A stretch of 64,000 nt of DNA from sequence record NC_110934.1. One strand, 5' to 3'. The stretch is from Klebsiella phage KPP2018. Positions 15,995 through 64,000 of this stretch are shown piece by piece. The notes under the pieces were generated by a model. The model saw only the letters and a program-made list of their open reading frames with translations, was not told where the DNA came from and did no database searches. The first letter of the stretch is position 1. Each line of letters begins with the position of its first letter. Both the position numbers and the translations under genes were made by a program.

Positions 15995-16225
15995 ATGGTT
16001 GCATATTCTTCTTCTGACGCTCTTTTCACTGGAAAAGGCTGGGTATCTAATCGCTGGATTATTCAAGAAATGGTGCAAGAATACGGCATTGCTAAAACTT
16101 ACACTACCATTCAGGCGCTTTATGATAATGATCAAATCGATCAGCAAACGGCGGGCTTTTTGCTGGACACGCTGAAAGCGGAACACTGCACTAAAAAGCA
16201 AGCGGCAAAAATTATTTTAATGTAA
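15995..16225 (+). CDS. Hypothetical protein (76 aa); its 3' third is inside the duplicated block
   Basis: RBS GGAGG before the ATG at 15995. Its C-terminal 31 codons recur as an orphan fragment at 45594-45699. Confidence 0.5.
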   Translation: MVAYSSSDALFTGKGWVSNRWIIQEMVQEYGIAKTYTTIQALYDNDQIDQQTAGFLLDTLKAEHCTKKQAAKIILM

Positions 16226-16274
16226 TTAATAAAGGGGCGAAAGTAACGCCCCACTAACTAGGGGAGTATTACAA

Positions 16275-16424
16275 ATGATTATTTTTCGAGCTATTCTGGC
16301 GGGTATCTTGGGCGCTATTTTATCTTTGTTTGCAATAGCTTTCGATGTTCACGCGGTTATTATCGGCGCGGGTATCGCTGCATTTTCTTATCTGCTGGGC
16401 TGCATGACTAGTAAAGGAGAATAA
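16275..16424 (+). CDS. Small membrane protein (49 aa)
   Basis: Two transmembrane segments with an RBS. Starts a translationally coupled chain. Confidence 0.45.
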   Translation: MIIFRAILAGILGAILSLFAIAFDVHAVIIGAGIAAFSYLLGCMTSKGE

Positions 16425-16426
16425 AA

Positions 16427-16639
16427 ATGATCCGCAACGTTTCTCTTGCACGTTCGAAAGGCTTTAAGCTGGTGGATGCTAACACGTTCGAGCGGGAAGA
16501 TTGTAAAATCGAATATGTAGCACGTAACAAAAATGCCTTTCGTGTTACTGAGAAAAAATTTGATAAGCGCGGCAACGTGATCGCTGAAACGGTTAAGCAC
16601 TTTGCCACCTTTTACGCTGCGTTTCGTGGGGTACTATGA
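16427..16639 (+). CDS. Hypothetical protein (70 aa)
   Basis: RBS AAGGAGA. Confidence 0.5.
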   Translation: MIRNVSLARSKGFKLVDANTFEREDCKIEYVARNKNAFRVTEKKFDKRGNVIAETVKHFATFYAAFRGVL

Positions 16640-16776
16640 AAAGCGTTATCGTTATTGCCCTTGCAATGGTTGGCGGTTTTACCGCCACCTTATTCAAAAA
16701 TGACCCCATTTCATTGGGGATCTTTATGTTATTATCTGGCTATCTAATTGGGAGGTTGTCAAATGGTTATTTATGA
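16636..16776 (+). CDS. Small membrane protein (46 aa)
   Basis: ATGA overlap with the previous ORF and one transmembrane helix. Confidence 0.4.
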   Translation: MKSVIVIALAMVGGFTATLFKNDPISLGIFMLLSGYLIGRLSNGYL

Positions 16777-17107
16777 GGGCAATCGTTTTGTTGCTAATTG
16801 CCGTCCTGCATTATTAGCAAACTACTTAAATCAGCTTTCCCCAGCTTATAAGGGTGTTATTAATATTTATGAGGGCAAGGCGCATTATAAAATCAATGCG
16901 GTCGTTGCCCGTGAACTAGCATTTCAATTTTTGACCTTTGCATCTTGTGATATTCAGGTCATGGGGGAAGCATTAATTGCAGAAAATGAAGATGATTTTA
17001 TTAATATTTTCCGCAAGATATGCACCGAGCGGCTGATAATGAAAGGCGCGTATATTCAATCCACGGCTGATAGTATTGAAACAGCGTTTCGAAAGGTGGC
17101 GCAATGA
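16763..17107 (+). CDS. Hypothetical protein (114 aa)
   Basis: RBS GGGAGG before the ATG at 16763. The track start at 16748 has no RBS. Confidence 0.55.
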   Translation: MVIYEGNRFVANCRPALLANYLNQLSPAYKGVINIYEGKAHYKINAVVARELAFQFLTFASCDIQVMGEALIAENEDDFINIFRKICTERLIMKGAYIQSTADSIETAFRKVAQ

Positions 17108-17262
17108 AAAAGTTTTTAATAGCTGGCATGTTTCCGTTGTTGCCTTATGTAATTTGCTGGGCTTTATACGCTCATGGCGCTAGTGTTCCCGCTGTGGCTT
17201 CATTTGGTGTATCGGCGGGCTTTCTAGCTGGACTATTAGCAAGCGTATACTTACGCAAATAA
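17104..17262 (+). CDS. Small membrane protein (52 aa)
   Basis: ATGA overlap with the previous ORF and two transmembrane segments. Confidence 0.4.
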   Translation: MKKFLIAGMFPLLPYVICWALYAHGASVPAVASFGVSAGFLAGLLASVYLRK

Positions 17263-17281
17263 TTAATAATGGGGCGTTATT

Positions 17282-17476
17282 ATGAGCAATAAAATTGTTG
17301 TAACCAAAATCAGTACAATGGTTGATGTTTTTTACGTGCCCGATACGCCGGAAAACCGACAAGCGGTCGAGCGTGGAGAATATGATAAAGTGATTTATGA
17401 TCACGATGGTTATTATCAGCATTTAGTGGATTCCTACGGGGAGGAGGAGAAGATCACGCATCGACTACCAGACTAA
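17282..17476 (+). CDS. Hypothetical protein (64 aa)
   Basis: ORF. Confidence 0.45.
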   Translation: MSNKIVVTKISTMVDVFYVPDTPENRQAVERGEYDKVIYDHDGYYQHLVDSYGEEEKITHRLPD

Positions 17477-17479
17477 TAA

Positions 17480-19140
17480 TCACGGGGCGCAACTATCAGG
17501 AAGTGCCCCCAATTCTCAAATGAGAATGATTCTCATTTGACCGCGCCCGCGATGGTTAGCCTGCTAATGGTTAGGGTGTTACGTGTCGCCTTGTGTGATC
17601 GTTAGCGTGCTAACTAATTTTCAAGCCTCCTTCAATTTTGCCCTTGTTTTAGTATCCCCAACAAAATTAAACGCGTTAGAATGCGTTTGAGAGCGTTTTA
17701 ACGCTATATTAGAATTATTCACTGCGTAGGAATACTGTATATTTATACAGTAGGATAAGCTGTGGATAAGTCTGTTGATAACGCTTCAAAACGGCTAGAA
17801 TTTTGTCAAGTCAAATCGTGCTGTTAGTAAGTCTGTGGATAACTTAAATAACAGTGTTTCTCACTTCCGTTCTTAAATGAGAATCATTATCATTTGCATT
17901 TCACTATCTAACTAATAATCATTCCGCTTTTTAAATGAGAATCATTCCGCTTTTTAAATGAGATTGATTCTCATTCCGCTTTTTAAATGCGAATTATTAT
18001 CATTCTCATTCCGCTTTTTAAATGAGAATGATTCTTATTATCATTCGTATTTAGCGCAGGGCAATTGCCCTGCGCTTTTGTGCAAATCCGACATTGCTCC
18101 ACGGGTGTTACGTGCGGGCGTGTATGTGCGAATCCGACAATCTTTGGTAGTGTGCAAATCCGACCCGAAAAATTTTTATAGTGTGCAAATCCGACAATGA
18201 ATTTTCCCAAAAACTCCAGCAATCTCGAACTGCGTTCGAATCCTGTGGGGTATGTGCAAATTCGACACGGTTTTTCTAGGATTAAGATGTGCAAATCCGA
18301 CAAGATTTTTGTGACTTCGATTGGAGGGTGTGTGATTGTGTGGGTTTGGGGAGAAGATGAGAGAGCGAGAGAAAATAAGGGAAGAAACTGGAGGAGCAGC
18401 ATGGGTGGCGTGTAACGCCTGATTTGCTGCGTTTTTGGGGAAGAGTTGAGAAGATTTGGGTTAATTGGGCTTGGGGCGAGATAAAGTAAAATTTTATTAG
18501 CAAAATGGGGCAAAATAGCTTGACAAGTGAAAATTCCTGTGGCTCAGGTGCTGCGTACTTTGATACATGGCAGTGGTTTAACCTTAGCAATAATGCTGCT
18601 ATTTTCAGGAGATTATATGTGCCTAAAAACTTAGGCATTTGTGCAAATCCGACCATAAATTTCTAGAAACACAATGTGCAAATCCGACAGTAATTTCTGG
18701 AAATGTGTTTTCAAAAAATGTCTCCTAGAAATAACCGCCCTCCCTATAACCGCCCTGTATTAAACCGCCTAGTATATGTTCCTAGAAACTTAGGAGAACC
18801 GCCCACTAGAAGCGTGATATCTCGTGGGTATTTCGTGAGAACTCTGGAGTTTCTAGGAAAGTGTATGTGATCCTAGAGATGGGGAGCGGCAACAGGTGTA
18901 TCATCTTGAACACAGATATTGCCTTTAAATATATTCGTATGTTTTAAAAGTAAATGATCCCCCATTTCATGTGAGATTCCTCGTGGGGCGCGTGAGTATT
19001 ACGGAAGAACTCTAATATTGGCCCGCGCTAAGACTAGCCGCTATAGCACAGACGCAAATAGAGTTGTAATAATCATCGCCCCTAGAGTTCACAATAAGAG
19101 TTATTGTTAATCTATGAGATTATTATAACATACATTTTTA
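17480..19140. repeat. Iteron-rich non-coding region (candidate replication origin or regulatory hub)
   Basis: Eight copies of TGTGCAAATCCGAC (six at 18078-18304, two at 18641-18690). A 22-bp perfect palindrome GCGCAGGGCAATTGCCCTGCGC at 18053-18074. Five copies of TTCCGCTTTTTAAATGAGAAT(C/G)ATT at 17860-18050. A 21-bp palindrome AAATGAGAATGATTCTCATTT at 17517-17537. DnaA boxes in minus orientation at 17760-17769 and 17835-17843. A LexA-type palindrome at 17735-17750. TCCTAGAAA and AACCGCC short repeats at 18660-18880. Confidence 0.8.
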
Positions 19141-19146
19141 ATAACG

Positions 19147-19902
19147 TCAAGAAGATTTTGCTAACGTTTTTGGATTCTTCCTGGCTTTGAGATATATCCC
19201 TTTAGATGCTAGGTAAATATATGTTGCTAGGAATGAAGATTCTGATCCCGATTCCTCATAGGTTAACGTACCTCTAGGGTATTTATTTGTTTTAGGAGCA
19301 TAGTTAAGCACAGCCGCAGTTAATGATCCTAATCCTAGAACATCCGCAAGACGTCTAAAGGTATTCTCTTCATCATGAATAGCATAAAGAATGTTATCTT
19401 CAATATCCGTTAATGGAATCTTACGGATATGAGATACTGCAATCCGTGCTATCATAGCTCCAATTGTTTTATTAATATCCTCGAAAGAAACACTCTCCAT
19501 ATATTTTAGAGGGGGAAGATGGTCATATTTACATTTCTTAGGCGGAATAAGAAGTTGTTCAGGGTAAGCCTCTAGTGCCTGACGAACGTTTGCTTCTGGA
19601 TATGTTGGCAAAGGTTCATCTATAATAACATGTAAAAAGTTAGCTCTATGCCCTTTAGCAGTTGGATCTAAAGACTTGAGTACTTTATTCATATCCACAT
19701 ATGAATATGCTAGGTCTGCTTGAGGAGCATTAATATCAAACTTAATCTTCTTGCCCTCCCATTTAGCAGGGAACATCTCACAAACAAACATTACTGCATG
19801 TTTGACGTCTGGCTCTAGCTCTGATAGACATTTGTGATCTGCTGTTACTGCTAAAGCGAGTATATTCTTAAATTTATTAGCTTCTTCAATCATATATCCC
19901 AT
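19147..19902 (-). CDS. Hypothetical protein (251 aa)
   Basis: ORF. An identical copy lies at 48611..49366. Confidence 0.6.
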   Translation of the reverse strand: MGYMIEEANKFKNILALAVTADHKCLSELEPDVKHAVMFVCEMFPAKWEGKKIKFDINAPQADLAYSYVDMNKVLKSLDPTAKGHRANFLHVIIDEPLPTYPEANVRQALEAYPEQLLIPPKKCKYDHLPPLKYMESVSFEDINKTIGAMIARIAVSHIRKIPLTDIEDNILYAIHDEENTFRRLADVLGLGSLTAAVLNYAPKTNKYPRGTLTYEESGSESSFLATYIYLASKGIYLKARKNPKTLAKSS

Positions 19903-20231
19903 GCCTGCTGACTAGTATCACTAACTTGTGTCTTTTTCTCTCTTCGTGGTTTAAAAGTTCCTGTAGTATTACTTTTACTAGGTTCTAATTTATACCACAG
20001 CATTCCTAGCTGGTTAACCATATGAGCAACATTTCTAGGGGTCAATGGAGGTAGGGATTCACAGTTTGATATCTCTATTAATATATTAAATAATTCTGTC
20101 TCTTTAGCCTTACTGTTTACTACCACCACGTATTCTAATGTCTCTACCTCAGAATCCTCGTCTTTATAGTAAAGGCTAAGAGTAATTAAATTTTCCCCAG
20201 CAGGAGTTATTTTTGTTTTACCAAATATCAT
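19890..20231 (-). CDS. Hypothetical protein (113 aa)
   Basis: ORF. Confidence 0.55.
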   Translation of the reverse strand: MIFGKTKITPAGENLITLSLYYKDEDSEVETLEYVVVVNSKAKETELFNILIEISNCESLPPLTPRNVAHMVNQLGMLWYKLEPSKSNTTGTFKPRREKKTQVSDTSQQAWDI

Positions 20232-20845
20232 TAATTACCTCTCTTATCTTCATTAAGCGCAGCTCCCAACGCCTCCATAATAGCATCTTCTAAACTTCCA
20301 TGTTTACTAGGATCATTAAAATGAATAGCATAAACAGAACTCCTAGAAACTCCAGCATCCGCAGGTGCTACGCTTCGCATATCAGATTCAAAAGCTTCTT
20401 GAGTATGCTTTAACTGTACAGAAGGGCCGTAATCTTCACCAAACTTGTATGACTGCGTACTACTTATCACACCCCCACAAGGAACATTGTGCATATCCGA
20501 CATTAATCTTTTATCGGAGTTATTCAGCATTGCGATTGGCCCTGACTGCCACGGATCTCGAATAGTTACTGGAGTACTGGGGCGGTTCACTTCAGCCTTC
20601 ACAAGTTTGTACCCTGCATCGATTAATGCGTTAATTAGATTATCAGCTGGGATGCGAGCCTTGCCAAAAATCTTACGAGCATCTTCGAGCTTATCCTCAA
20701 GATCTTTACATGCTCTAAGGTCAGTGTGTGCAAATGTTAGCTTCATAGATTTAAATTGTACAGTAGCAGTTAAATCTTTAAAGCTATAATCCCATGTGTT
20801 CAGTTCATGATCCGGTACTACTTGAATAGGTTGTTGTGCAAACAT
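20231..20845 (-). CDS. Hypothetical protein (204 aa)
   Basis: ORF. Confidence 0.6.
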   Translation of the reverse strand: MFAQQPIQVVPDHELNTWDYSFKDLTATVQFKSMKLTFAHTDLRACKDLEDKLEDARKIFGKARIPADNLINALIDAGYKLVKAEVNRPSTPVTIRDPWQSGPIAMLNNSDKRLMSDMHNVPCGGVISSTQSYKFGEDYGPSVQLKHTQEAFESDMRSVAPADAGVSRSSVYAIHFNDPSKHGSLEDAIMEALGAALNEDKRGN

Positions 20846-21030
20846 TATATATTCTCCAGTTTGTCTAACAGTTTATGAGCTGCGATGTTATATTGAAAGA
20901 GTTCATTATTGAGAATTTCATTCTCACAGGTTAACTCTAGATTCTTAGTATTGAGGCGACTGCAAATCAGTATCAGTCCCAGGATTATTAGGAGTGAGCC
21001 TCCTAGTAATACAAGAAGTAATGTTTCCAT
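20845..21030 (-). CDS. Small membrane protein (61 aa)
   Basis: Transmembrane helix. Confidence 0.45.
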   Translation of the reverse strand: METLLLVLLGGSLLIILGLILICSRLNTKNLELTCENEILNNELFQYNIAAHKLLDKLENI

Positions 21031-21263
21031 TATTTAATTCCCATGTAACGTTTGAGATATCCGATGAAGTCTTCCGCTGTATGCTCTACGCTACCTTGAG
21101 CTACGAATAGCTTGAGAGCTTCACGTTGTAGTTTGAGAGCAGCTAACTCACCCCGTAATTTTATCAGATCTTCTGCTAGTTCTCTAGCTCTACGCATAAT
21201 AACAAAAGATACAAGTACTACGATGAATAACATAACTACTAAAATAATTGCTATGATTTCCAT
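21030..21263 (-). CDS. Membrane-anchored coiled-coil protein (77 aa)
   Basis: N-terminal transmembrane helix and an amphipathic helix. Confidence 0.5.
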   Translation of the reverse strand: MEIIAIILVVMLFIVVLVSFVIMRRARELAEDLIKLRGELAALKLQREALKLFVAQGSVEHTAEDFIGYLKRYMGIK

Positions 21264-21541
21264 ATTAACATCCAGCTTTTATCACACATTTGGGCATGGT
21301 CTATCAGTTCATTCATTGATGTATTGTTATCATAAATGCACTCTAGTATATACCTTCTATCAAATTCGTCAACCAAATATTCTACGTTATTTATTACTAC
21401 TTTATACAGATCTGGGACTAGAGAGCATGTATTTGGTACGGGGCGACTGCTTAAGTCTATTTCGTTTTTACCCCATTCTGTTTTAAATAGTTTGTTACTA
21501 AGTGCTGCTAATGGGTTTGACCACACAATATAGCTACTCAC
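21251..21541 (-). CDS. Hypothetical protein (96 aa)
   Basis: ORF. Confidence 0.5.
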   Translation of the reverse strand: MSSYIVWSNPLAALSNKLFKTEWGKNEIDLSSRPVPNTCSLVPDLYKVVINNVEYLVDEFDRRYILECIYDNNTSMNELIDHAQMCDKSWMLIWKS

Positions 21542-21980
21542 TATTTATCTCCCTTCTTAACTTTGAAAACTTATTATACCAAACTATATGATTATCGTCA
21601 ATTACAAATTTATGATAACATGCTGGCACGGTATAAGTTCCATAATCCGTGACACGCTGCACAACCTTGTGTGCACACAGTCGACAACCATGCCCTTCTA
21701 AATGAGATCTAGCAGTTTGCCAGTAATACCCTTCATGATCTGGGCAATAGATCTCGACTTGCTGTTGCATTGTTTTATAATTTACACGCTCATACCCAAA
21801 GAAAGCTCCATGAACTGCAACAGCTTTCTTGATAAATATAAGGTTTAGTGCTTCTTGCTGAAAGTCGGGATGTAGCTGCTTAATCTTAGTTCTATTAATA
21901 GATCCATCCGATTTGATAAACCTATTTATTGGGAAGTTGTTAGCTTCCTCGATTAGTAATTCATTTACTTTTTCTCTCAT
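21534..21980 (-). CDS. Hypothetical Cys/His-rich protein (148 aa)
   Basis: Start moved to the ATG at 21980 (MREKVNELL) to remove a 100-nt overlap with the upstream gene. Contains several Cys/His motifs. Confidence 0.5.
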   Translation of the reverse strand: MREKVNELLIEEANNFPINRFIKSDGSINRTKIKQLHPDFQQEALNLIFIKKAVAVHGAFFGYERVNYKTMQQQVEIYCPDHEGYYWQTARSHLEGHGCRLCAHKVVQRVTDYGTYTVPACYHKFVIDDNHIVWYNKFSKLRREINSE

Positions 21981-21981
21981 A

Positions 21982-22206
21982 TTAGATATTCTCACACCTA
22001 AGGTAGAAACATTCGTAAGCATCACCAGTAAACTCTTTACCTTGTAGTATACATTTAGCCTGGTCTTCTGGTACTCCGGCATCTAATAATTGTTGTTTAC
22101 TTGGCTTTTCAGCGAATACCTTTACAAAATATTCACCATCCTGATTATACTCATTTATATCTCTAGTAAGGACATATACTTGCATTTGAAATTCCTTGAA
22201 ACACAA
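21982..22206 (-). CDS. Hypothetical protein (74 aa)
   Basis: ORF. Confidence 0.5.
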   Translation of the reverse strand: MCFKEFQMQVYVLTRDINEYNQDGEYFVKVFAEKPSKQQLLDAGVPEDQAKCILQGKEFTGDAYECFYLRCENI

Positions 22207-22239
22207 AAGGCCAGAACAATTAAGTCCTGGCCTCTAGAA

Positions 22240-22611
22240 TTAATGAAGTTGTTTACCACTTCTTAACATAGTGGCCGTTTCCATAAGATTTAACGTTGTA
22301 TCACGCTTTTTGATTTGTTTGTCGAGTTCATCGGTGCGTTTGCCAATGTAAGCGTTAATAGCCATATTCATAGCTGAGGCGAGATCTTCTTTGGTTATCT
22401 CTTCATCATCTAAGGCTAATTTAGCCAAAGAATCGAACGCAATAGAAAGTCCTATAAGATCTGAGGTTTCACTAGCTAAGATGGGATCAATATTATCTAT
22501 TGTTACTTCTAACATAGAGTTAACAATATCTTCTCCGTCTACTAGACCAGATTCAATATTACTCTCCCATTCCTTCATCTGCTCCAGCAATGGATTTTTC
22601 TTTTCTGTCAT
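22240..22611 (-). CDS. Hypothetical acidic protein (about 123 aa)
   Basis: Start chosen at 22611 (MTEKKNPL) because it has an AGGA RBS. The track start at 22677 overlaps the upstream gene. Confidence 0.45.
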   Translation of the reverse strand: MTEKKNPLLEQMKEWESNIESGLVDGEDIVNSMLEVTIDNIDPILASETSDLIGLSIAFDSLAKLALDDEEITKEDLASAMNMAINAYIGKRTDELDKQIKKRDTTLNLMETATMLRSGKQLH

Positions 22612-23020
22612 GGTAGAGATTTCCTGTGTCAGTTGGTAAGAAGGACGATTGAGCTTTAGGTGGATGTTGTTTAGCAATCCAGTTAAGAATCAGCACACGA
22701 CTAGGAACAATATCAGTGTTGTACCAGAAATCGTGAACCCATTGACGAGCATCCTCAAACTTACCAAATTTATATGCTTTCTTAAACAATTTAAACCCAA
22801 AACAATCTGGTGTAAAGTCTACTTCACGATACTGAACTACTTTAGAACCGGTTAGGTCTTGGATTGCTGCATTAATTTCTGTATGAGAGAATTTTGTTTC
22901 GTGAAACTTATTAAAGAATCGGTAGTTGAAGCGTCCGTTCGTTTCGACAAACAACTGGATAAAGAGATCGTTAAATTGATTATCAAACCAGTAATTCTGT
23001 AGTTGTTGTAGTGCTGTCAT
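22559..23020 (-). CDS. Hypothetical protein (153 aa)
   Basis: ORF. Confidence 0.55.
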   Translation of the reverse strand: MTALQQLQNYWFDNQFNDLFIQLFVETNGRFNYRFFNKFHETKFSHTEINAAIQDLTGSKVVQYREVDFTPDCFGFKLFKKAYKFGKFEDARQWVHDFWYNTDIVPSRVLILNWIAKQHPPKAQSSFLPTDTGNLYHDRKEKSIAGADEGMGE

Positions 23021-23217
23021 TTACGAACTCCGTTAATTGCCACGATGATGCCTTCGTACATAAAAGGAAGTAGTTCAGAAGTGTAGAAGATATTTTCCGT
23101 TATTCCTAGATGTCGAAAAAGTATATTAAATAATGCTGTTAGAAATACAATCTGAGGCAGTAATACAAAATACTCAGTTACAATCTTTGGTGCCTGATAA
23201 ACAAGACGTTTTATCAT
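23017..23217 (-). CDS. Small membrane protein (66 aa)
   Basis: ORF. Confidence 0.4.
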   Translation of the reverse strand: MIKRLVYQAPKIVTEYFVLLPQIVFLTALFNILFRHLGITENIFYTSELLPFMYEGIIVAINGVRK

Positions 23218-23316
23218 TGTTTTTAAGTCTCCTTATTACTTTGGCCTGCTCCACAATAATAAAAACTGCAAGCACTAATAGTGCTATTAGCCCCGCAGTA
23301 ATTGGTACTAAATCAA

Positions 23317-23643
23317 TCATGGGAGACGCCATACGTAATTAGCTGTCTGTAGGATCTTAGGTGTGTCATTATGATACATTACTACAGACTTTGGTGAATA
23401 ACTATCAGCTAGTTCTTTACGAATCATCTTACATTCTTCACCAGTATCGATATTTTTAACTATCACTTTCATATTAAGAGGTGTTAATACAGAAAGTGGT
23501 TTCCAAGAGTCCTCAATTTCAATTCCTACCTTTTTCTCGATTAACATGAGAACTTCTAGTGTATCATCTGGAATACTAATATTATTATTCACAAACTGTA
23601 ATATCTCATGTAAGGTATTTAATTCATTAAAATTAAGCTTCAT
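23317..23643 (-). CDS. Hypothetical protein (108 aa)
   Basis: ORF. Confidence 0.5.
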   Translation of the reverse strand: MKLNFNELNTLHEILQFVNNNISIPDDTLEVLMLIEKKVGIEIEDSWKPLSVLTPLNMKVIVKNIDTGEECKMIRKELADSYSPKSVVMYHNDTPKILQTANYVWRLP

Positions 23644-23878
23644 CTTTAAGAATATCCTCTACCATATCACAAGACTGTTGCAATTCATCAGCAATACGTT
23701 TAATATCGGTTTTTGTTACTTTACCAACTAACATCACCAGTAACATAGAAAAGATAATAAGTGGAACTGGAATAACAAATAAAGCTACTTTAGCTACATT
23801 CTTTGGTGCCCATGTGTGGTATTTAGTAACCAGTACACCAACCACAATTAGATAAAACGCTAGAATAAACATCATCAT
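23633..23878 (-). CDS. Membrane protein (81 aa)
   Basis: Two transmembrane segments. Confidence 0.5.
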   Translation of the reverse strand: MMMFILAFYLIVVGVLVTKYHTWAPKNVAKVALFVIPVPLIIFSMLLVMLVGKVTKTDIKRIADELQQSCDMVEDILKDEA

Positions 23879-24156
23879 TTTTTAATCTCCGTAATTATCT
23901 GTGCGCGCATTACTTTATTAGGTAATTTTGTATTCCCAGCTATTGCTTCAATATTGTTTAGTTTTTCTTTTAGAATATCTGAGCGTCTTTGTGCTAGTTC
24001 AATATCTTGTTCTTGTTCTATTAAGCGGCAGTGAAGTCCACTATTAGTAGTAAGCATACTCTCCATATTTTTTCGCATGCTTACAATACCAATAATCCCA
24101 CCAATCGCTGCTAGTGTCATAAGAACTAGTAGTCCAATGAGAATTTCAGTTAACAT
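23875..24156 (-). CDS. Membrane-anchored coiled-coil protein (93 aa)
   Basis: Transmembrane helix and a heptad region. Confidence 0.5.
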   Translation of the reverse strand: MLTEILIGLLVLMTLAAIGGIIGIVSMRKNMESMLTTNSGLHCRLIEQEQDIELAQRRSDILKEKLNNIEAIAGNTKLPNKVMRAQIITEIKK

Positions 24157-24316
24157 TAAATACTCCTACATTTTTCGTTATCTGGGACTAATTTACACAT
24201 TTCTACTTTCAGTTCTTTTGCTGAGTTTTCTAGTTTAGAAACTTTATTGTGAATAAGTCCCAAAAATATCGCTTGGAAAACTACCATTATTGCTACTAAT
24301 GCTAGTTTATTCTCCA

Positions 24317-24586: not shown

Positions 24587-24600
24587 TAATTTATGAACTT

Positions 24601-24629: not shown

Positions 24630-24646
24630 CTGAATTTTTTAATTAC

Positions 24647-56106: not shown

Positions 56107-56342
56107 ATAACAGTTAAAATAGTTGTGCCATAATCATTAGATAGTTGGAGAGTATAACCCTCTTTATAGAGGGCTTTTATAGCTTCATAACTAATTTCAT
56201 CACGATTAAACTGTACAAAAGAACCTCCAATCTCCACGGAAGAAACTATTCTCTTTTTAACGTATTTATATGGTTTCTTTCTACTCTTAAGGAGTGTAGC
56301 TCTATTTATTCTAGCTAAACGTTTTGCTTGTTCCGCTAACAT
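56097..56342 (-). CDS. Duplicate of 26633..26878
   Basis: Identical copy. Confidence 0.5.
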   Translation of the reverse strand: MLAEQAKRLARINRATLLKSRKKPYKYVKKRIVSSVEIGGSFVQFNRDEISYEAIKALYKEGYTLQLSNDYGTTILTVIWE

Positions 56343-56346
56343 TTAA

Positions 56347-56724
56347 TTATCTCCAGTGATTAGTATGCTTCTCAGCTTCCTCATCGTTAGGCTCAAAGAC
56401 AACATGGCAGTCAACTGCTTCCCAAAAAGCCTCACGGATTAAAGAGTTTTTAGCTGAAATGTCTAATTCTCCCCACTCTTCTAAAGTCTCTAGGTCTGTA
56501 TCAACTTCGGTATCACAGCCAACCAACCCCAAAGAAACAACAATAGTAACGCGATCTTCACGTTGTTCGGGATAAACATCAGCATATTCCCAAGCAGCTT
56601 CTTCAACATAATATTGTTGTTCCTTTTCTGGAAGTGACTTATACTTTTCTTCTGTAATACCCATCTCAACGGCGCGAGTACCACATACTACATTATTATT
56701 AATAATTAGATATGCATAGTTCAT
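56347..56724 (-). CDS. Duplicate of 26883..27260
   Basis: Identical copy. Confidence 0.5.
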   Translation of the reverse strand: MNYAYLIINNNVVCGTRAVEMGITEEKYKSLPEKEQQYYVEEAAWEYADVYPEQREDRVTIVVSLGLVGCDTEVDTDLETLEEWGELDISAKNSLIREAFWEAVDCHVVFEPNDEEAEKHTNHWR

Positions 56725-56903
56725 CGTAATACTCCTATTTCTTGAAGGGCAAAGAAAGCCATTAATATGACTAAAATCCATACAAAGATATGTGACATAA
56801 TCATATTAATGTCTCTCATCAATTTATATAAGTATTATACCAAAATTTTTAGCAAAAAGCAAGTAAAATAAAAGCCTGATCAGCTAAGATCAGGCTTTGT
56901 TTA

Positions 56904-57194
56904 TTAGTCCTCTGGATTATCATCCAGGAAATTTTTAATAGCTTCGTGCATAGTTTCTTTACGAAGCTGACGTCCAATCAGAATATGATTAGCTTCTATT
57001 CGACCATTAGGTAAGCGATCCGCCAGAACTACTACAGGAACTTGGCGCACACCAAATTTCTGCATTAATTCTGTATTATCAGTCTCTTTATGGATTTCCA
57101 AATTATAGTCATTGACTACTTTATCAAATACTGGCTCAAACATTTTGCAAGGGTTGCAAGTAGAACCTTTCAATAGATATACTAATTTACTCAT
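56904..57194 (-). CDS. Duplicate of thioredoxin-fold protein 27440..27730
   Basis: Identical copy. Confidence 0.55.
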   Translation of the reverse strand: MSKLVYLLKGSTCNPCKMFEPVFDKVVNDYNLEIHKETDNTELMQKFGVRQVPVVVLADRLPNGRIEANHILIGRQLRKETMHEAIKNFLDDNPED

Positions 57195-57618
57195 AGTTAT
57201 TAATGGCCTCTAAGAAGTTTCTCATAGTTTTTACGGTTGCAGTGCTTAGATCAAGATTTACACCCAAACACTCGGTTAATGCCTCCTGATAAGGAGCCTT
57301 CAATCTGCCTTCTGGGACTTCTACCTTTTTATACTCTTTATTTTTGACCTTTTTAATCATAGTCTCTAGTACAAGAAGCGGTAATTTAGCACCTTCAATA
57401 TCAGTACCCAAAAGTTCAGTTAAAATTTTATTAAGATCAAGACGAGTTAACTTTTTGCCCTTAGACATAGATGCACCTACCTTTGTATCAATAGATTTTT
57501 CCGCTTTCTTTTCGAGCTTTTTGTACTCAGGAGAGTCATGATCACGGAGTGCAATGTTTAGCTCGTAATGTGGTATACGAAAATGTTCCGCCATTTGAGT
57601 ATAGAAACGATCAGACAT
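57187..57618 (-). CDS. Duplicate of 27723..28154
   Basis: Identical copy. Confidence 0.55.
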   Translation of the reverse strand: MSDRFYTQMAEHFRIPHYELNIALRDHDSPEYKKLEKKAEKSIDTKVGASMSKGKKLTRLDLNKILTELLGTDIEGAKLPLLVLETMIKKVKNKEYKKVEVPEGRLKAPYQEALTECLGVNLDLSTATVKTMRNFLEAINNYE

Positions 57619-57693
57619 AATATATACCTCTCTTAACTAATTTATGTATATATTATATAATAACTAGGGCTAAAAGTCAACTACTTTTTTATC

Positions 57694-58110
57694 TTAATCT
57701 ACTACATGTATAAATCTTTTCCTAACTAGATACATAGTTATTGGGTAAATTGAGTACATAAGTATCGGGGAGAAAAGGGTGAAATACGCTGTAACTCCCC
57801 CAGCTAACATCAAAGGTATTAATGCTAGAGTAAGGGCCATAAGAATCATACCGAATGAAACAGCCAAAGCTATGGATATAGGATTCTCTAGTTCCATCCA
57901 TAACCAACAATATTTCGTATCTCTATGGCAATTGCATTTACAAACGCCGAATGAACCCATAATTATATACTCTAGTCCGTGAATAACCTTTATTAATAAG
58001 CTATTTCGGGTAGTTAATGCAAGGATAGTAAAGACTATCATTAAAACGAATACTACTAGACTTATTTTCCAGATACCTAGCAGCATCATAGTGAATAGTT
58101 CTGCAAACAT
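57694..58110 (-). CDS. Duplicate of membrane protein 28230..28646
   Basis: Identical copy. Confidence 0.55.
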   Translation of the reverse strand: MFAELFTMMLLGIWKISLVVFVLMIVFTILALTTRNSLLIKVIHGLEYIIMGSFGVCKCNCHRDTKYCWLWMELENPISIALAVSFGMILMALTLALIPLMLAGGVTAYFTLFSPILMYSIYPITMYLVRKRFIHVVD

Positions 58111-58187
58111 GGCTTTCTCCTATCTTCAAAAATTATTAAAGCCCCCTTTGCCTAAAAAGGCGGGAATACTCCCGCCTCAGTTATTAA

Positions 58188-58601
58188 TTAAACTAGTTCG
58201 ACATGACCGCCATCATAGGTACCACGTTTTATTTCATCGTGATAATCTCCCGAAGCATTCCAATCAGCACCAAAGCGAAGTTTAATGCCTAGTTCTTTAC
58301 CGGCTTGTTCAAAAGCCTTTTTAACTGCCCAAAATGCTTCTAAATCATTCCAATCAATTTTGCCATTAATGTATGGAGCAAAATCAAGGGCATCCCCAGT
58401 AATATGCTTGCTTTTACTAGGATCTTTTAAAAATGAAGTACCATTAGCAATATTCTGGGCACTTTGTGCTACTGTACGAATACCCTGTACGATCGTGAAA
58501 TCATATGGAGATAATTCTAAAGCTCTACGAGCTACTTTTTGTAGCTCTGGCTTAACGGTAGCTAATTGTTTTTCGCTATTTTTACCAAATTTAAAACTCA
58601 T
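58188..58601 (-). CDS. lys: Duplicate of endolysin 28724..29137
   Basis: Identical copy. Confidence 0.8.
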   Translation of the reverse strand: MSFKFGKNSEKQLATVKPELQKVARRALELSPYDFTIVQGIRTVAQSAQNIANGTSFLKDPSKSKHITGDALDFAPYINGKIDWNDLEAFWAVKKAFEQAGKELGIKLRFGADWNASGDYHDEIKRGTYDGGHVELV

Positions 58602-59254
58602 ATTGATCTACCTAAAGATCTCTGTTGTGGGGAACAGAGCTTTGTTAAATACTCGTTAAATTTCTCAGAATCGGCTGCATCTACAGGATTATCTTTCCAA
58701 GCAATACCAATATATCCAGCATAGATATTGTTTAGATTGAAATACGGACAAGTGTATATGTAATTAAAAGTAACGTTCTTAAACGCAGGTATATTTAACC
58801 CCATGTATTTATTTACTTTTACACTTAAATCCGATGCGTAGTTAAAGCCTTCCAAGTGACGTCTATATAGCTCAGACGTTTTATTTACCGCTTTATCGGC
58901 CAAGTCAGCCCTATCTAATTGCGCATTGCTTTCCCATGCAATAATGTTAGAATAATCATTAATGGCATCGGGTTTATACTTGACGACAAAAACAGCATCC
59001 GCACCCGTTTGGGAGAAAAGCACCATGCTCTTCTCTCTAGCTACATTAGGAAAGTTATCTATCCTTTGAGTTTGAACATCCTGTAGAACCGCAGACGTGG
59101 AGAAAGTCTTTAAGAATGACATCACCTCGCTAGTATTACTAACAAATAAGAAAATAATGACAGCAACTAAGATAGTTAGCAGACGTTTAAGAAGCGATGC
59201 TGGATCTTTCGCTTCTTGGAGCAGTACCGTTAATAATTGTAAGAACTTTTCCAA
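58598..59254 (-). CDS. hol: Duplicate of holin 29134..29790
   Basis: Identical copy. Confidence 0.65.
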   Translation of the reverse strand: MEKFLQLLTVLLQEAKDPASLLKRLLTILVAVIIFLFVSNTSEVMSFLKTFSTSAVLQDVQTQRIDNFPNVAREKSMVLFSQTGADAVFVVKYKPDAINDYSNIIAWESNAQLDRADLADKAVNKTSELYRRHLEGFNYASDLSVKVNKYMGLNIPAFKNVTFNYIYTCPYFNLNNIYAGYIGIAWKDNPVDAADSEKFNEYLTKLCSPQQRSLGRSI

Positions 59255-59410
59255 TTGTAACCTCCTCTAACCAGTACCATTATACTAATTTTGGAGGAAA
59301 ATTACAATGTGTTTTTAAAGATCACTTCTGGAGCATAAAATTTTGTCGTTGTCAAGAAGAATTTTAGATAAAAGAAAAGCCAGGGTCGTTAAACCCTGGC
59401 TTAAAACTAC

Positions 59411-60010
59411 TTACTCTTCGTTGTGCTCCTCGAATTGAGGTAACTGGGCTTTATTATATTGCTCAGATCGATATTTTGCCAAGATTTCAATACGCTTATG
59501 GATTTCTTTGCTATCTAGATAGATATTTTTGTTGTCTTTTACCATCTCGTCGATTTCATCTATTGAGAAGAATGGATAGTAGACATCTAGCATCATATCT
59601 TCTACGAACTTGTTGTAAGATTCATAGGCTTTCTTGATTTCTTGACCTTTCTCACAGAATCCGCCAGAGAACGTGTGTCCCATTAACGTAGCATGTGGAT
59701 GTACTACCCATCCATGACAGGATAGGAAAATTGTGCAGTAAGCAGAAGCACTAGGACCAATCAGATGTCCTATAACTGTTCCACGGCAATTAGCAATTAA
59801 GTTAGATAACTGTGCAGCAGTATCAACATAACCACCCGGGCCATTAATCATCAGATTAATTTCGTCGTCCTCATTTGCCTGCATAAGTACCATTGATAAA
59901 TCACGGTATTCATCCGGCGGGCCTAATTCTTCATCAAAGAAAAAGGTATACTCATTAGATTGGCGAATGGAGTGAAACAGGTTAGTCTTTTCTTCTTTTT
60001 TATTAGTCAT
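59411..60010 (-). CDS. Duplicate of ClpP-like protein 29947..30546
   Basis: Identical copy. Confidence 0.5.
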   Translation of the reverse strand: MTNKKEEKTNLFHSIRQSNEYTFFFDEELGPPDEYRDLSMVLMQANEDDEINLMINGPGGYVDTAAQLSNLIANCRGTVIGHLIGPSASAYCTIFLSCHGWVVHPHATLMGHTFSGGFCEKGQEIKKAYESYNKFVEDMMLDVYYPFFSIDEIDEMVKDNKNIYLDSKEIHKRIEILAKYRSEQYNKAQLPQFEEHNEE

Positions 60011-60022
60011 AGCGATCCTTGA

Positions 60023-60775
60023 TTATCCAACTAGTGGTTCTAGCTCTAAGTCACAGAAGTTATAAACTTCTAGTTTAAGGTTATTGATACCATCGAATTT
60101 ATTAACTAATTCGTGAGTAATATATTTTGCAGGAATACCACTTTCAGATGGATGATCTGATTTAATAGTGAACTTCTGCTCAGCGGGTACTACATTTACT
60201 ATCAAAGAATCCATATCTAAATGGTTTGTTTCTCTGAGTAGCTCTCCTTCATTGGGGAATCTAACATCTGTTATTACGGCGACGTCTGGGTCGTCTTTAG
60301 CGATGGATTGCTCCAGAATTATGAGCCAAATGCGTTCATGCACCAGCTGCCTTCCTAGCTCTGTTCCTACGAGCTGTAACATTTTTCTCGGAGAAATAAA
60401 TAAACTATAAAGACCATCTTCTTTACTCCCTGAGATAAGTTGTTGAGGATTAAGATATTTTTCCTCAAAAATAGGCCAAACGTACGAGAAGTCTTCAAAC
60501 TTATCGATACCATACTTAAACCACACATCCCTGGCTCGCTCCAATTGAGATTGTGTGACCGTAAACCATTGGTCAATCTCTTTTCCCCTGCGCTCTCCTA
60601 GAAACTCTGGAGTTACACCGAGGATTACGGATGCAAGTTCATAAACGGGCTTAGCAAAACTGTAACGACAGGGTAAACACATTGGATACGTGTCATTACA
60701 CCAATCAATAATTAATTTTGCAACGGTATCTTTTCCCGAACCAGCTTCACCATGTAAACCGACTAATACTGACAT
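60023..60775 (-). CDS. dnk: Duplicate of dNMP kinase 30559..31311
   Basis: Identical copy. Confidence 0.7.
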   Translation of the reverse strand: MSVLVGLHGEAGSGKDTVAKLIIDWCNDTYPMCLPCRYSFAKPVYELASVILGVTPEFLGERRGKEIDQWFTVTQSQLERARDVWFKYGIDKFEDFSYVWPIFEEKYLNPQQLISGSKEDGLYSLFISPRKMLQLVGTELGRQLVHERIWLIILEQSIAKDDPDVAVITDVRFPNEGELLRETNHLDMDSLIVNVVPAEQKFTIKSDHPSESGIPAKYITHELVNKFDGINNLKLEVYNFCDLELEPLVG

Positions 60776-61128
60776 TAATCTTTCCTATTTGTAATGGGTG
60801 GATAGTAAACTAAGCAACGTTTTTCTTGTAAATCTTGACGATAGAAGCAAACCATACCAGTCAGTCGTGAAATGTAAGAGTAAACTGCTTCCTCACATTT
60901 TGCTTTTGCATTCCAATCTTTGTATGGTATAACAACTACTACGCCATCTTCTCCATTTGTAGCTAATTTCTTTTCAAACCTAAAGTTAAAGCTACAAGGT
61001 TGAAGTCCTTTAGGCCAGTCTACATGAGCTTGCTTTAACTCATGAGATGGCTCTGGTTTTATTTCTTCTGCACAGCCTGTGATCGTGATTGTGGCTGCGA
61101 GCAGTACTCCAAGTTTCCAGTTAAACAC
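60775..61128 (-). CDS. Duplicate of o-spanin-like lipoprotein 31311..31664
   Basis: Identical copy. Confidence 0.5.
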   Translation of the reverse strand: MFNWKLGVLLAATITITGCAEEIKPEPSHELKQAHVDWPKGLQPCSFNFRFEKKLATNGEDGVVVVIPYKDWNAKAKCEEAVYSYISRLTGMVCFYRQDLQEKRCLVYYPPITNRKD

Positions 61129-61508
61129 GCTAATCTTTCCTCGAACTCTTTATTCTGCTTTTTAGCAATTAATGTTACCAATCCAGGCTTTGCAGCGATA
61201 ACATCTTGACGACTAAGAGCTTTATCTAGCTGCTTAATCTTTTTGTCTAGATCTGCTTGCGAAATATTATTCATTGTGAAATACTGATTCATTCTAGTCT
61301 CACGAAGTTCGCTTTCAGCTTTCACCTTATTAAGGGAAGTCTCTAGAGAGGAAATCTTTTTAGTAGCTACCGCAAGATCTCCCGCTAAAGTCTCCACTTT
61401 ATCTACTAAGTGATAAGCACCGAACCCGATGCCTATCGCTAGACCTGCTCCCAGGATATACCACTTACCGTGCCATATTCCTGAAAGAAGTTTTTGTATC
61501 AAATCCAT
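61059..61508 (-). CDS. Duplicate of i-spanin-like protein 31595..32044
   Basis: Identical copy. Confidence 0.5.
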   Translation of the reverse strand: MDLIQKLLSGIWHGKWYILGAGLAIGIGFGAYHLVDKVETLAGDLAVATKKISSLETSLNKVKAESELRETRMNQYFTMNNISQADLDKKIKQLDKALSRQDVIAAKPGLVTLIAKKQNKEFEERLACLTGNLEYCSQPQSRSQAVQKK

Positions 61509-62163
61509 GCGCTGCTAACCTGTCTTTATCTGATACTTTAATCATATCAGGCTCACCAGTTCCTAGTACACCAAAGATATACTGTTCGAGAACTTGGTGT
61601 AAACGGTATAAGTTACTTTCAATTTCCTGCCACGGAATACCTGACTGATGGAAACGAATGTTAGTCTGAATCACGAAGTTACGAACATCATCGTTATCGT
61701 TCTTTTTAATACCTTTCACATATGCAATCGGTACACGCAGTTCGGATAAGATACGTTCTGCTTTAGGTTTTGCTTCAGCGAGCAAATCACGCATTGTTTC
61801 ACGAACATCTCCACGACTCTTATCCATTAAGTAAGAGCGAGCATGCAATCCCATCTCTTCCATTTTATCGAACATAGTGTCGAGATTAAACGTTTTGAAG
61901 CTAAATGCTGGATGCCAGCAGTACAGCTCGTGTAACCAGTAAACTTCACCTGCAACAAATAGTGGGTTTACAAAATATTCGAAATCACCACGAAAAGATA
62001 GCGAGCCATCACGAAATACCTGGCGAGTATGCACAATGTTCTTTTCTGCATCATCGGTTACTTTAACCAGCAACTCTTCAGTTTTACGCTCCCAAACACG
62101 ATCTGGGTCGAACAAACTGTTTTGCAAATCATACACATCGGCGAACTTAGAAATAATCCTCAT
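61465..62163 (-). CDS. Duplicate of 32001..32699
   Basis: Identical copy. Confidence 0.6.
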   Translation of the reverse strand: MRIISKFADVYDLQNSLFDPDRVWERKTEELLVKVTDDAEKNIVHTRQVFRDGSLSFRGDFEYFVNPLFVAGEVYWLHELYCWHPAFSFKTFNLDTMFDKMEEMGLHARSYLMDKSRGDVRETMRDLLAEAKPKAERILSELRVPIAYVKGIKKNDNDDVRNFVIQTNIRFHQSGIPWQEIESNLYRLHQVLEQYIFGVLGTGEPDMIKVSDKDRLAAHGFDTKTSFRNMAR

Positions 62164-62317
62164 ATTTAATCCTCTTGCCTCAATCTATAAACATATTATA
62201 CAAAAGTTTGGGCATCTAAGCAACTAAAATTTTATTATAAAAATAGCCCAGTCGCAAAAGTGCAGGCTGGGCTTTGTCATTATTTGCTTTTGCTAGTAAG
62301 TTGATTTAGTATCAATC

Positions 62318-62698
62318 TTATGTAATATTAGTTTCTCTAGCTTTGCGTAGTACCCCTGCATTTCTCCACAATTTGATGTCAGCAACTGTTTCTTTATATG
62401 GAGCAATGGTAGAACCAATTGGGCCAGCAACTAATAGTCCAAAGAACCCTACAATACGCATGTAGAACAAGCATTCTTTGGCTGTCATATTATTTACTGC
62501 TTTTTTCTGCTTTTCATCTTTAAACTTCTGTTCTTGATCATCAATATGTAGATACTTAACAAACCATTCAGCAGAATATTCATCCAAATGTCTAATAATA
62601 GCTATCGCATATCCAGCACCGATTAAAAACCAGGTTGTAACAAGAATTAGTAATATAGTCATATTATCTCCAGTTAGGGCTAGCAGCCATCTCACCAC
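62318..62698 (-). CDS. Duplicate of 32854..33234
   Basis: Identical copy. Confidence 0.55.
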   Translation of the reverse strand: MVRWLLALTGDNMTILLILVTTWFLIGAGYAIAIIRHLDEYSAEWFVKYLHIDDQEQKFKDEKQKKAVNNMTAKECLFYMRIVGFFGLLVAGPIGSTIAPYKETVADIKLWRNAGVLRKARETNIT

Positions 62699-62772
62699 TT
62701 ACCGCACTAAGGGGCACGACTCCCTTATCCGTAACAGTTGCAGGTGACGCAACTCGGTCCTACGCGAGTTCT

Positions 62773-63057
62773 TTAGGTATTCTGCATTTCAGCTTTAAAT
62801 TTTTTCATATTACGAGTTTTTCTATAAAAGAAAAACACAGATGTTGGGCCTAGAAGAATATCCACAATAAATATCATAGATCTAGCACATCTGAGTAATG
62901 TTTTATCATCAAGAGGAGGCAGATCTAACGGTCGAGTTTTATGTATAACGTATAATATTACATCTTTATTCTTAGAAATATACAGATCATCAACCAAGCT
63001 GTAAATAGCTACTATAGATCCAATGATGAACCAAAGAGCAAATGGAGAGATAATCAT
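62773..63057 (-). CDS. Duplicate of 33309..33593
   Basis: Identical copy. Confidence 0.5.
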   Translation of the reverse strand: MIISPFALWFIIGSIVAIYSLVDDLYISKNKDVILYVIHKTRPLDLPPLDDKTLLRCARSMIFIVDILLGPTSVFFFYRKTRNMKKFKAEMQNT

Positions 63058-63392
63058 TTCAGATCCTTTTCATTAATTAGAATATTAGTAAACAGTGGAG
63101 TAACTCCTAGACTCATAGTAGGTCCAAACATATTCATGGCTACCCACAATTGCATAGTGATCATCCCATCTTTAATCTCTGGATCTTTATATTCTTCGAT
63201 ACGTTTTTTAGCAAAGGCAATTACATCTGGAGTACTACCGTTCTTTACAACATGATCATGCCAAAACTGGGTATTCTCACTACGTAGGAATGTTAAAACA
63301 TCCTTAGTTGCTGGAATCTGCACTGTGCTATTGATGTTTAGTCTTTTCACGTTCTTTTCCATGTTACTCTTCTCCTTCAAAGTCGCAATCAT
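63054..63392 (-). CDS. Duplicate of 33590..33928
   Basis: Identical copy. Confidence 0.55.
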   Translation of the reverse strand: MIATLKEKSNMEKNVKRLNINSTVQIPATKDVLTFLRSENTQFWHDHVVKNGSTPDVIAFAKKRIEEYKDPEIKDGMITMQLWVAMNMFGPTMSLGVTPLFTNILINEKDLK

Positions 63393-63660
63393 AACGACAA
63401 GTAAAAGAACTGGAGCTATTAGTACGTTGGGTGGTTATTTCACCGCGTTTGCTAATAGTAACGGCTGGAGTAGAGAAGTTTTTATTAGTATAGATTTCTA
63501 CTTTACCATTACGTTCTTTAACATCACGAACTTTACCATACTCGGTAATAATGCCGTTCTGTTGGACTTTAACACTGCCATTTTTCATAGAAACTTTGGT
63601 AGATGCCAGAGAACCGAAACTAACTGCGGAGATCATCAGTGCAATAATAAACTTATTCAT
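63364..63660 (-). CDS. Duplicate of secreted protein 33900..34196
   Basis: Identical copy. Confidence 0.5.
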   Translation of the reverse strand: MNKFIIALMISAVSFGSLASTKVSMKNGSVKVQQNGIITEYGKVRDVKERNGKVEIYTNKNFSTPAVTISKRGEITTQRTNSSSSFTCRYDCDFEGEE

Positions 63661-63934
63661 CTTCATCCTCCCCACTACAATCACGACATACATCATAATC
63701 GTTGAAAGAACGTTCGTGAGCTTCACACCACCAAGAACAAGAATCGCAGAGAAACATTTCAGTTTTCTCAATTGCTTGGCCTAAAAGATCATCAGCTTCC
63801 TCAGCAGTAATCTTCAATCCGCACACATCTGCCACACGTTCTTTAATTAAACGACCTGCTTCGTGGTAAGACATACAGGTTCCCGCAACATCATGTTCAA
63901 GAACATGAACAGCACAGTCTAGACGAGTTTTCAT
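63653..63934 (-). CDS. Duplicate of Cys-rich protein 34189..34470
   Basis: Identical copy. Confidence 0.55.
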   Translation of the reverse strand: MKTRLDCAVHVLEHDVAGTCMSYHEAGRLIKERVADVCGLKITAEEADDLLGQAIEKTEMFLCDSCSWWCEAHERSFNDYDVCRDCSGEDEDE

Positions 63935-64000
63935 TTCAAACCTCTCTCATCAATTTATAAACATATTATAGCAAGAAAAGAGAGGTTTAGCAAATGAATT

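Follow-up and report, generated by a model that had tools for sequence, protein, structure and literature searches.

An Apparent 29.5-kb Tandem Duplication in the Sequence of Klebsiella Phage KPP2018 Is Very Probably a Nanopore Assembly Mis-Join

Introduction

The 64,000 nucleotides of Klebsiella phage KPP2018 that were analysed here (sequence record NC_110934.1; this whole stretch is referred to as the window) contain a direct duplication by which a long run of early genes appears twice, and the question is whether this second set belongs to the phage or to the assembly of its sequence. An initial annotation of the window had counted an assembly artefact among the options, and this agrees with the verdict reached here: the 29.5-kb duplication is very probably a mis-join in an untrimmed, native-barcoded (BC22) Nanopore assembly of an ordinary Tequintavirus and not a biological feature.

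Geometry of the Repeat and Differences Between the Copies

The positions and features that define the repeat are the following.

16120–34536, + strand: copy 1, comprising the final 2.4 kb of the terminal repeat and some 16 kb of early genes; native at its left edge
45594–64000, + strand: copy 2, which ends with the window and maps to SPC35 7042–26527
16258–16261, + strand: G-run, GGGG in copy 1 and GGG in copy 2 (at about 45732–45734)
36046–44016, − strand: cluster of 21 tRNA genes, in the portion of the 29.5-kb unit that is present once in the window

Self-BLAST of the window aligns the two copies over 18,418 columns with 99.853% identity, and a column-by-column comparison yields offsets of 29,474, 29,473 and finally 29,464 along the alignment, so that the coordinates and offsets given in the initial annotation for a large direct duplication are exact. 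The unit (16120–45593) measures 29,474 bp, and as copy 2 extends to the end of the window at 64,000, the repeated length of about 18.4 kb is a minimum. A repeat of such length and identity cannot have originated by chance. According to the SPC35 annotation the repeated part within the window holds about 42 CDS, in line with the roughly 45 early genes noted before, and among them are endolysin, holin, the NinI-like Ser/Thr phosphatase, dNMP kinase and the Rz-like spanin.

Over the 18.4 kb the copies differ at two sites, with no substitutions. At the G-run one base is lost from copy 2, shifting the offset from 29,474 to 29,473; the GGGG of copy 1 agrees with T5 and SPC35, and to judge from these two genomes the GGG of copy 2 is a homopolymer undercall. 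At the other site, a block of 47 nt in copy 1 (18546–18592) stands against 37 nt in copy 2 (48019–48055), after which the offset is 29,464. Both differences are technical and of the Nanopore type, one being a barcode block and the other a homopolymer length. The earlier view that the second copy is not a literal copy-paste of the first stands, but the reading of the copies as independently sequenced or diverged, and with it the leaning towards a possibly genuine duplication, is not supported, since they are separated by a barcode tail and a homopolymer undercall without a single substitution.

A T5-Like Genome and Its Canonical Terminal Repeat

Judged by its sequence, the window is a T5-like (Tequintavirus) genome that is otherwise ordinary. 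It is colinear with known members at high nucleotide identity: 545 records match, the best of them covering 94% of positions 1–25000 at 92–94% identity, while 33000–45593 is 95–98% identical to L6jm, E22 and WP85. Late genes are followed by a terminal repeat and then by early genes.

8437–18545, + strand: canonical T5-type terminal repeat of about 10.1 kb, colinear with the left terminal repeat of SPC35 (1–9573)

This 10.1-kb repeat had been missed in the initial annotation. It is of the same kind as the terminal repeats of T5 (~10.2 kb; 10,219 bp as annotated), SPC35 (9.6 kb; 9,573 bp as annotated) and BF23 (9.7 kb), with dmp, A1 and A2 encoded on the − strand and, after them, + strand ORFs and the injection-stop-signal repeats, as in T5. 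Because late genes precede it, it reads as the right terminal repeat. Its right end is placed precisely by the terminal base of the T5, SPC35, X5 and NBEco002 records and is identical to the T5 terminus, whereas the left end at about 8437 is a putative one, set by homology with T5 position 1 (TGTCCAC...). The region that had been called iteron-rich and origin-like corresponds to the injection stop signal region annotated in T5, at the right edge of the terminal repeat, and is not a demonstrated origin.

That the duplication is something other than this canonical repeat, as had been recognized before, is borne out by its length of at least 18.4 kb, its offset of 29,474 bp and the position of the termini. 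The duplicated copies are not bounded by the ends of virion DNA: position 16120 lies about 7.7 kb to the right of the putative terminus at 8437, well inside the terminal repeat, and the duplication passes the right terminus at 18545 by at least 16 kb into the early genes. T5-type terminal repeats of about 8–10 kb are separated by about 100 kb of unique genome and recur after about 109 kb, not after 29.5 kb.

A Nanopore Barcode Tail at the Right Terminus

The replaced block in copy 1 and its counterpart in copy 2 fall exactly on the boundary between the terminal repeat and the early region.

18546–18592, + strand: untrimmed 3' tail of ONT native barcoding (NB22), consisting of an A-tail and GGTGCTG, the reverse complement of BC22 (CGTACTTTGATACATGGCAGTGGT), and TTAACCTTAGCAAT(A)
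48019–48055, + strand: native terminal-repeat/early-region boundary, the counterpart of the barcode block, holding the GGGCCTTCGGCCC hairpin

The block begins with AGGTGCTG, continues with the reverse complement of BC22, the sequence of which is given in PMC9575581, and closes with TTAACCTTAGCAAT, and the 3' adapter pattern AGGTGCTG-N24-TTAACCTTAGCAAT has been described as a trimming target (PMC11984142). All 47 of 47 bases match when the ONT adapter end, AAGGTTAA, BC22 and CAGCACCT are taken as their reverse complement (E = 2e-22), and this is the sole ONT barcode match in the window. Explanations of the block by natural variation, inversion or host DNA were rejected on account of this exact match and of the lack of any match in the phage records or viral contigs searched. 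The block stands in place of 37 native bases, beyond which the contig is back in register in the early region, while copy 2 shows no difference from SPC35 over the same boundary (9574 onward).

The first base of the barcode directly follows ...CTGTGGCTC, the last base of which is window position 18545. The T5, SPC35 and X5 records end in the same ...CTGTGGCTC and the NBEco002 record in ...GGCCC, all at the same base, and by these record ends 18545 is the physical right terminus of the virion DNA. Thus a platform barcode lies inside the contig, it is attached to a real molecule end, and the contig runs on past that terminus. Further adapter or barcode remnants were not found in the window, including at the left terminus (~8437) and at the join 45593|45594.

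The Novel Junction

The initial annotation had placed both junctions of the duplication inside genes. ORFs do cover 16120 and 45593, but only 45593|45594 is novel, and 16120 stands in its native colinear context, as SP33 matches positions 4–25000 as one place.

45588–45599, + strand: the only novel junction, 45593|45594; blunt, with neither microhomology nor adapter
44826–45599, + strand: homologue of T5.077/SPC35_0068, cut to 257 aa by the junction (329 aa in SPC35)
15995–16225, + strand: homologue of T5.012/SPC35_0010, 76 aa, in the terminal repeat; it contains 16120 and is whole in copy 1, with only its 3' part in copy 2

The junction links the early region (SPC35 coordinate 36966) to the interior of the terminal repeat (SPC35 coordinate 7042). 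The TGA stop codon of the 257-aa product arises from the join, and the gene that is cut is conserved in 246 records. Related records all cease to match at 45593, and of the 246 matching phage records none spans the junction. A 36-mer across it has no exact match in the viral, genome and metagenome contig collections, the truncated protein is absent from the gene-position index by exact protein look-up, and an exact look-up of the 325-aa neighbouring protein found nothing.

Unequal recombination between the paralogues SPC35_0009 and SPC35_0068, both of 329 aa, was considered and rejected: the breakpoint in the terminal repeat lies in the next-but-one small ORF, the T5.012 homologue, and not in the SPC35_0009 homologue, the join does not keep the reading frame and introduces a stop codon, and the sequences left of the join share no nucleotide similarity. 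Indels relative to SPC35, listed in search of Nanopore-type frameshifts, are uninformative in this respect, being clustered in divergent stretches and mutually compensating, at 89–95% identity.

Nick Sites Near the Breakpoints

T5-type DNA carries site-specific single-chain interruptions, and homologues of these sites were located in the window by comparison with T5.

16115–16118, − strand: minimal T5 nick consensus, GCGC followed by T on the + strand, equivalent to 5'-AA|GCGC on the − strand
18072–18075, − strand: site homologous to T5 major single-chain interruption 1 (GCCCTGCGC|TTTTGTGCAAATCC), 470 bp away from the right terminus of the repeat; again at 47545–47548
31126–31129 and 60590–60593, − strand: homologue of T5 nick 2

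The nick predicted at 16118|16119 lies 1 nt from the copy-1 breakpoint. The four major nick sites in the T5 annotation lie within CCC(T)GCGC, a context that is missing here, and the closeness of the predicted nick to the breakpoint is suggestive only. No minimal-consensus GCGC adjoins the second breakpoint (45593). Breakage at the major T5 interruptions (7.9%, 32.6%) was rejected, as in T5 coordinates the first breakpoint falls about 2.0 kb left of the annotated nick at 9748 and the second about 0.9 kb left of that at 39746.

Origin of the Duplication

Because the contig resumes in register after the 47-nt adapter, its path combines a read that stopped at the right terminus with reads crossing the left repeat, and adapters were left untrimmed. 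The former supplied the 3' barcode tail where the terminal repeat ends, the latter the early region beyond it. The join 45593|45594 itself probably stems from a chimeric read that served as a bridge and that could have formed by ligation of two fragments during library preparation, one of its ends lying 1 nt from the nick-consensus site, where T5-type DNA might break. Alternatively, a layout error may have led the assembler a second time over the final 2.4 kb of the repeat and the early region, this pass being built from left-repeat-spanning reads. Copy 2 would have the native boundary sequence because it was built from such reads. The join is not a simple back-to-back "in silico" read chimera, because the junction is without adapter, and either a ligation chimera or a layout error must be assumed. 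The exact BC22 tail at a true molecule end, the homopolymer length error and the blunt join without counterpart in any relative are as in ONT adapter and chimera mis-joins, whereas the join itself is adapter-free and would have originated as a ligation chimera or layout error. The untrimmed barcode elsewhere in the contig is a mark of poor curation and is logically compatible with a real rearrangement at 45593.

A heritable tandem duplication of 16120–45593, generated by illegitimate recombination of the terminal repeat with the early region, would explain why the repeat is long and clean and why there is one sharp join without adapter sequence, and the head-to-tail arrangement with a single novel junction is as in genuine segmental duplications of phages and bacteria. 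The copy-1 breakpoint, 1 nt from the minimal nick consensus, could be break-prone, and nick-induced fork breakage is documented as leading to segmental duplication in other systems (PMC11406185). Nevertheless, such a duplication is very improbable. Unlike genuine tandem duplications, the copies show zero substitution divergence, both of their differences are technical and one copy holds technical sequence. The junction is missing from all collections searched and disrupts a gene found conserved across 246 records. The genome would acquire internally a further right-terminus cut site, another injection-stop region and two additional major nick sites. Genome size also speaks against it. Related records among the matches listed have 102–124.5 kb, save one of 84 kb and one of 35 kb, while with the extra 29.5 kb this genome would reach about 139 kb if one repeat is collapsed and about 149 kb if both are counted. 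The termini of T5-type phages are site-specific and the head is already full, and a genome about 24% longer would for these reasons probably not be packageable. It is likewise very improbable that a break at the minor nick 16118|16119 was joined illegitimately to the early region, with the duplication being real in at least a subpopulation; if true, this would be a sequence-level example of a phage's own site-specific nicks driving large rearrangements.

The join could also represent a real molecule of the DNA preparation, a rare recombinant or replication intermediate that was promoted into the consensus without being part of the phage genome. Rare reads can enter the consensus when a small genome of very deep coverage is assembled from long reads, and the blunt, adapter-free junction is compatible with such a source; however, sequence alone gives no distinction between this molecule and a library ligation chimera, and nothing in the window demands it. 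This explanation is as improbable as a heritable duplication. Less probable still is that two overlapping contigs were abutted, manually or by a scaffolder, or that the sequence is a deliberate construct. Two separately built consensus sequences would be expected not to be byte-identical, as is the case for the copies, and the second piece begins 1 nt from the nick consensus, where read ends could pile up. There is, however, no N spacer or other sign of scaffolding, contig joining would in any case be a variant of the artefact explanation with the same verdict, and a sequencing barcode on the exact genome terminus is not expected in a design.

Consequences for the Record

As a very probable mis-join in a barcoded Nanopore assembly, the duplication has no biological significance, and the apparent second set of early genes should be neither counted nor annotated, nor used for claims on genome size or gene dosage. 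In terms of quality control, the record needs adapter trimming and re-assembly, and both the 47-nt barcode block at 18546–18592 and the segment from 45594 on should be removed or re-examined. The stray barcode at the same time marks the exact right terminus of the phage DNA (...TTCCTGTGGCTC), which coincides with the terminus of T5.

Genome Layout and the Direct Repeat

By its sequence the window comes from a T5-like phage (Demerecviridae, Tequintavirus). Window 1-25000 finds matches in 545 phage records, the best being those of Salmonella phage SP33 and Escherichia phage OSYSP (94% coverage, 92-94% identity, one colinear place), and the relatives' annotations under this match include a receptor-binding protein, terminase, portal, prohead protease and capsid proteins. 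The map reference was Salmonella phage SPC35, in whose record both terminal repeats are annotated.

Layout of the window relative to SPC35
1-8436: right end of the late region, ORFs on the - strand
8528-18777: SPC35 105-9800, left terminal repeat (SPC35 1-9573) and its edge
20228-45593: SPC35 11447-36966, early genes and tRNA cluster
45594-64000: SPC35 7042-26527, a backward jump in the mapping

The contig runs from late genes through the canonical terminal repeat into early genes, jumps back into the terminal repeat and enters the early genes again. The context of 16120 is fully native, and the sole non-native adjacency is 45593|45594. The tRNA cluster (21 genes, 36046-44016, - strand) is typical of the T5 deletable region and holds short internal repeats between tRNA paralogues (e.g. 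36791-36875 vs 40467-40552).

Self-comparison yields a single long direct repeat, 16120-34536 (copy 1) vs 45594-64000 (copy 2), which reaches the window end and aligns over 18,418 columns with 99.85% identity, far out of reach of chance. A walk along the alignment finds only two difference sites. At the first, GGGG at 16258-16261 is matched by GGG in copy 2, shifting the offset from 29,474 to 29,473; since T5, SPC35 and copy 1 all have GGGG, the GGG of copy 2 is a homopolymer undercall. At the second, a block is replaced (start 18546 in copy 1, 48019 in copy 2), and downstream of it the offset is 29,464. Both differences are technical, and over 18.4 kb the copies show no substitutions. Self-comparison and alignment walk thus reproduce the coordinates and offsets of the initial annotation exactly. 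Its interpretation, which left open a real duplication, an assembly artefact or a constructed sequence and took the two differences to favor independently sequenced or diverged copies, is supported in part only, both differences being technical.

A Nanopore Barcode at the Right Genome Terminus

Across the replaced block copy 2 equals SPC35 exactly, while copy 1 has 47 unrelated bases that are absent from all phage records and viral contigs searched. These bases read AGGTGCTG-CGTACTTTGATACATGGCAGTGGT-TTAACCTTAGCAAT(A). Their 24-mer equals Oxford Nanopore barcode BC22 in reverse complement (BC22 is listed as ACCACTGCCATGTATCAAAGTACG in PMC9575581), and its flanks equal the 3' trimming pattern quoted for native-barcoded reads, AGGTGCTG-N24-TTAACCTTAGCAAT (PMC11984142); for the Native Barcoding Expansion kit the flanking sequences are given as AAGGTTAA and CAGCACCT (PMC11630701). 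In a BLAST search of the window, the full adapter-plus-barcode construct matched 47/47 at 18546-18592 (E = 2e-22), with no further adapter or barcode match of note. The replaced block is an Oxford Nanopore sequencing barcode. At the native counterpart, 48019-48055, just beyond the repeat boundary, a GC-rich hairpin (GGGCCTTCGGCCC) follows an upstream -35-like TTGACA; in copy 1 this element is overwritten by the barcode block.

The last native base ahead of the barcode is 18545, in ...GAAAATTCCTGTGGCTC. The GenBank records of T5 (NC_005859), SPC35 and X5 all end ...CTGTGGCTC on the equivalent base, the NBEco002 record ends at this position with ...GGCCC, and the SPC35 left repeat is annotated to end there as well. 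The barcode was therefore joined by ligation to virion DNA at its physical right terminus, and inside the virion there is no sequence beyond this base. Past the 47 nt of adapter, the contig nevertheless continues in register, starting 37 nt inside the early region. The stray barcode pinpoints the exact right terminus, 18545|18546 (...AAATTCCTGTGGCTC), and, combined with a T5-like left-end motif (TGTCCAG at ~8437), puts the length of the terminal repeat at ~10.1 kb. The duplication itself differs from the T5 terminal repeat in boundaries, length and spacing, bearing out the initial statement that it is not canonical, but the true terminal repeat is nevertheless present at ~8437-18545.

The Junction

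The junction reads ...GTGTGCTAACCAG|TTATGATAATG..., with native continuations ...CCAG|AACTCTCTGG (SPC35) on one side and ...GGCGCT|TTATGA on the other, and has neither microhomology nor adapter sequence. Matching ends exactly at 45593 in all related records, and of the 246 records that match within the surrounding 400 bp, not one spans the junction; its 36-mer was not found in viral, genome or metagenome contig collections. The join cuts the T5.077/SPC35_0068 homologue from 329 to 257 residues and itself creates the stop codon, leaves the second copy of the 76-aa T5.012 homologue 5'-truncated, and yields a truncated protein with no entry in the gene-position index.

The minus strand of T5-type DNA is nicked at specific sites (PMC10644984), with the consensus 5'-N Pu pGCGC N-3' in the T5 record. 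A minimal consensus site lies at 16115-16119 (- strand 5'-AA|GCGC; + strand of copy 1 GGCGC|TTTATG), and its predicted nick, 16118|16119, is one base off the breakpoint 16119|16120; this offset falls in a run of T, the kind of sequence in which a Nanopore consensus is least dependable. As GCGC plus pyrimidine occurs 39 times in the window, a random breakpoint would lie within 1 nt of such a site in ~0.2% of cases (<1% with both strands and both sides). The site is kept in T5 but not in SPC35 (GACGC). The link is weakened since the site lacks the longer CCC(T)GCGC context common to T5's four annotated major nick sites, the major nick positions lie 2.0 kb and 0.9 kb away from the breakpoints, and there is no GCGC on the other side of the join. 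Given that handling breaks such DNA at its nicks, according to the BF23 paper, a reasonable, if unproven, origin of the join is a ligation chimera that took in a fragment end made at a nick, and 16115-16119 could be a minor nick or break site.

Assembly Error or Duplication

The barcode at the terminus proves that the sequence is a Nanopore long-read assembly, that adapters were left in, and that the contig topology is the assembler's and not a molecule's. A read ending at the right terminus, its tail untrimmed, would have entered the read-tiling assembly and been overlapped, via the 10-kb repeat, with reads that cross the left repeat and continue into the early genes. In its behavior the repeat fits a known type of long-read assembly error, in which an adapter left untrimmed is combined with a chimeric or mis-laid path; three of the four defining features of this type were examined and all three are present.

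A genuine, heritable 29.5-kb duplication is very improbable, as its copies differ by technical artefacts alone and one of them demonstrably continues past a physical end of the DNA. Lengths among the related records listed are 102-124.5 kb, except for one of 84 kb and one of 35 kb, whereas the duplication would bring the genome to ~139 kb (one repeat) or ~149 kb (both). In T5, termini arise at specific sites and the head is tightly packed as it stands, hence the existence of heat-stable deletion mutants; a duplication-bearing genome should therefore not be packageable. It would also contain an internal second right-terminus site, an internal second injection-stop region and two additional internal major nick sites. 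A real but rare aberrant molecule is given similarly little credence. The duplication is almost certainly not real biology; the record should be trimmed and re-assembled.

Features of the Terminal Repeat

The right edge of the terminal repeat lies within an array of six copies of TGTGCAAATCCGAC (18079-18675, again 47552-48139), the first of which abuts the homologue of T5 major nick 1. This region, initially described as iteron-rich and origin-like, carries the label injection stop signal in the T5 annotation. Just upstream, 17919-18039 (again 47392-47512) holds three related direct repeats of ~30-34 bp, 94-97% identical (17919-17947, 17942-17975 and 18006-18039). A 133-bp inverted repeat with 77% identity (13953-14084 vs 17735-17866, and 47208-47339) flanks a block of + strand ORFs inside the terminal repeat. 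A perfect 28-bp palindrome (9785-9812) separates two - strand ORFs, one of 130 aa (9362-9754) and the A1 homologue (9820-11574). The 164-aa + strand ORF at 15394-15888 has no SPC35 counterpart (unaligned gap 15332-15885) and equals in length the annotated ORF gp010 of phage chee24; it is probably a variable accessory gene of the terminal repeat.
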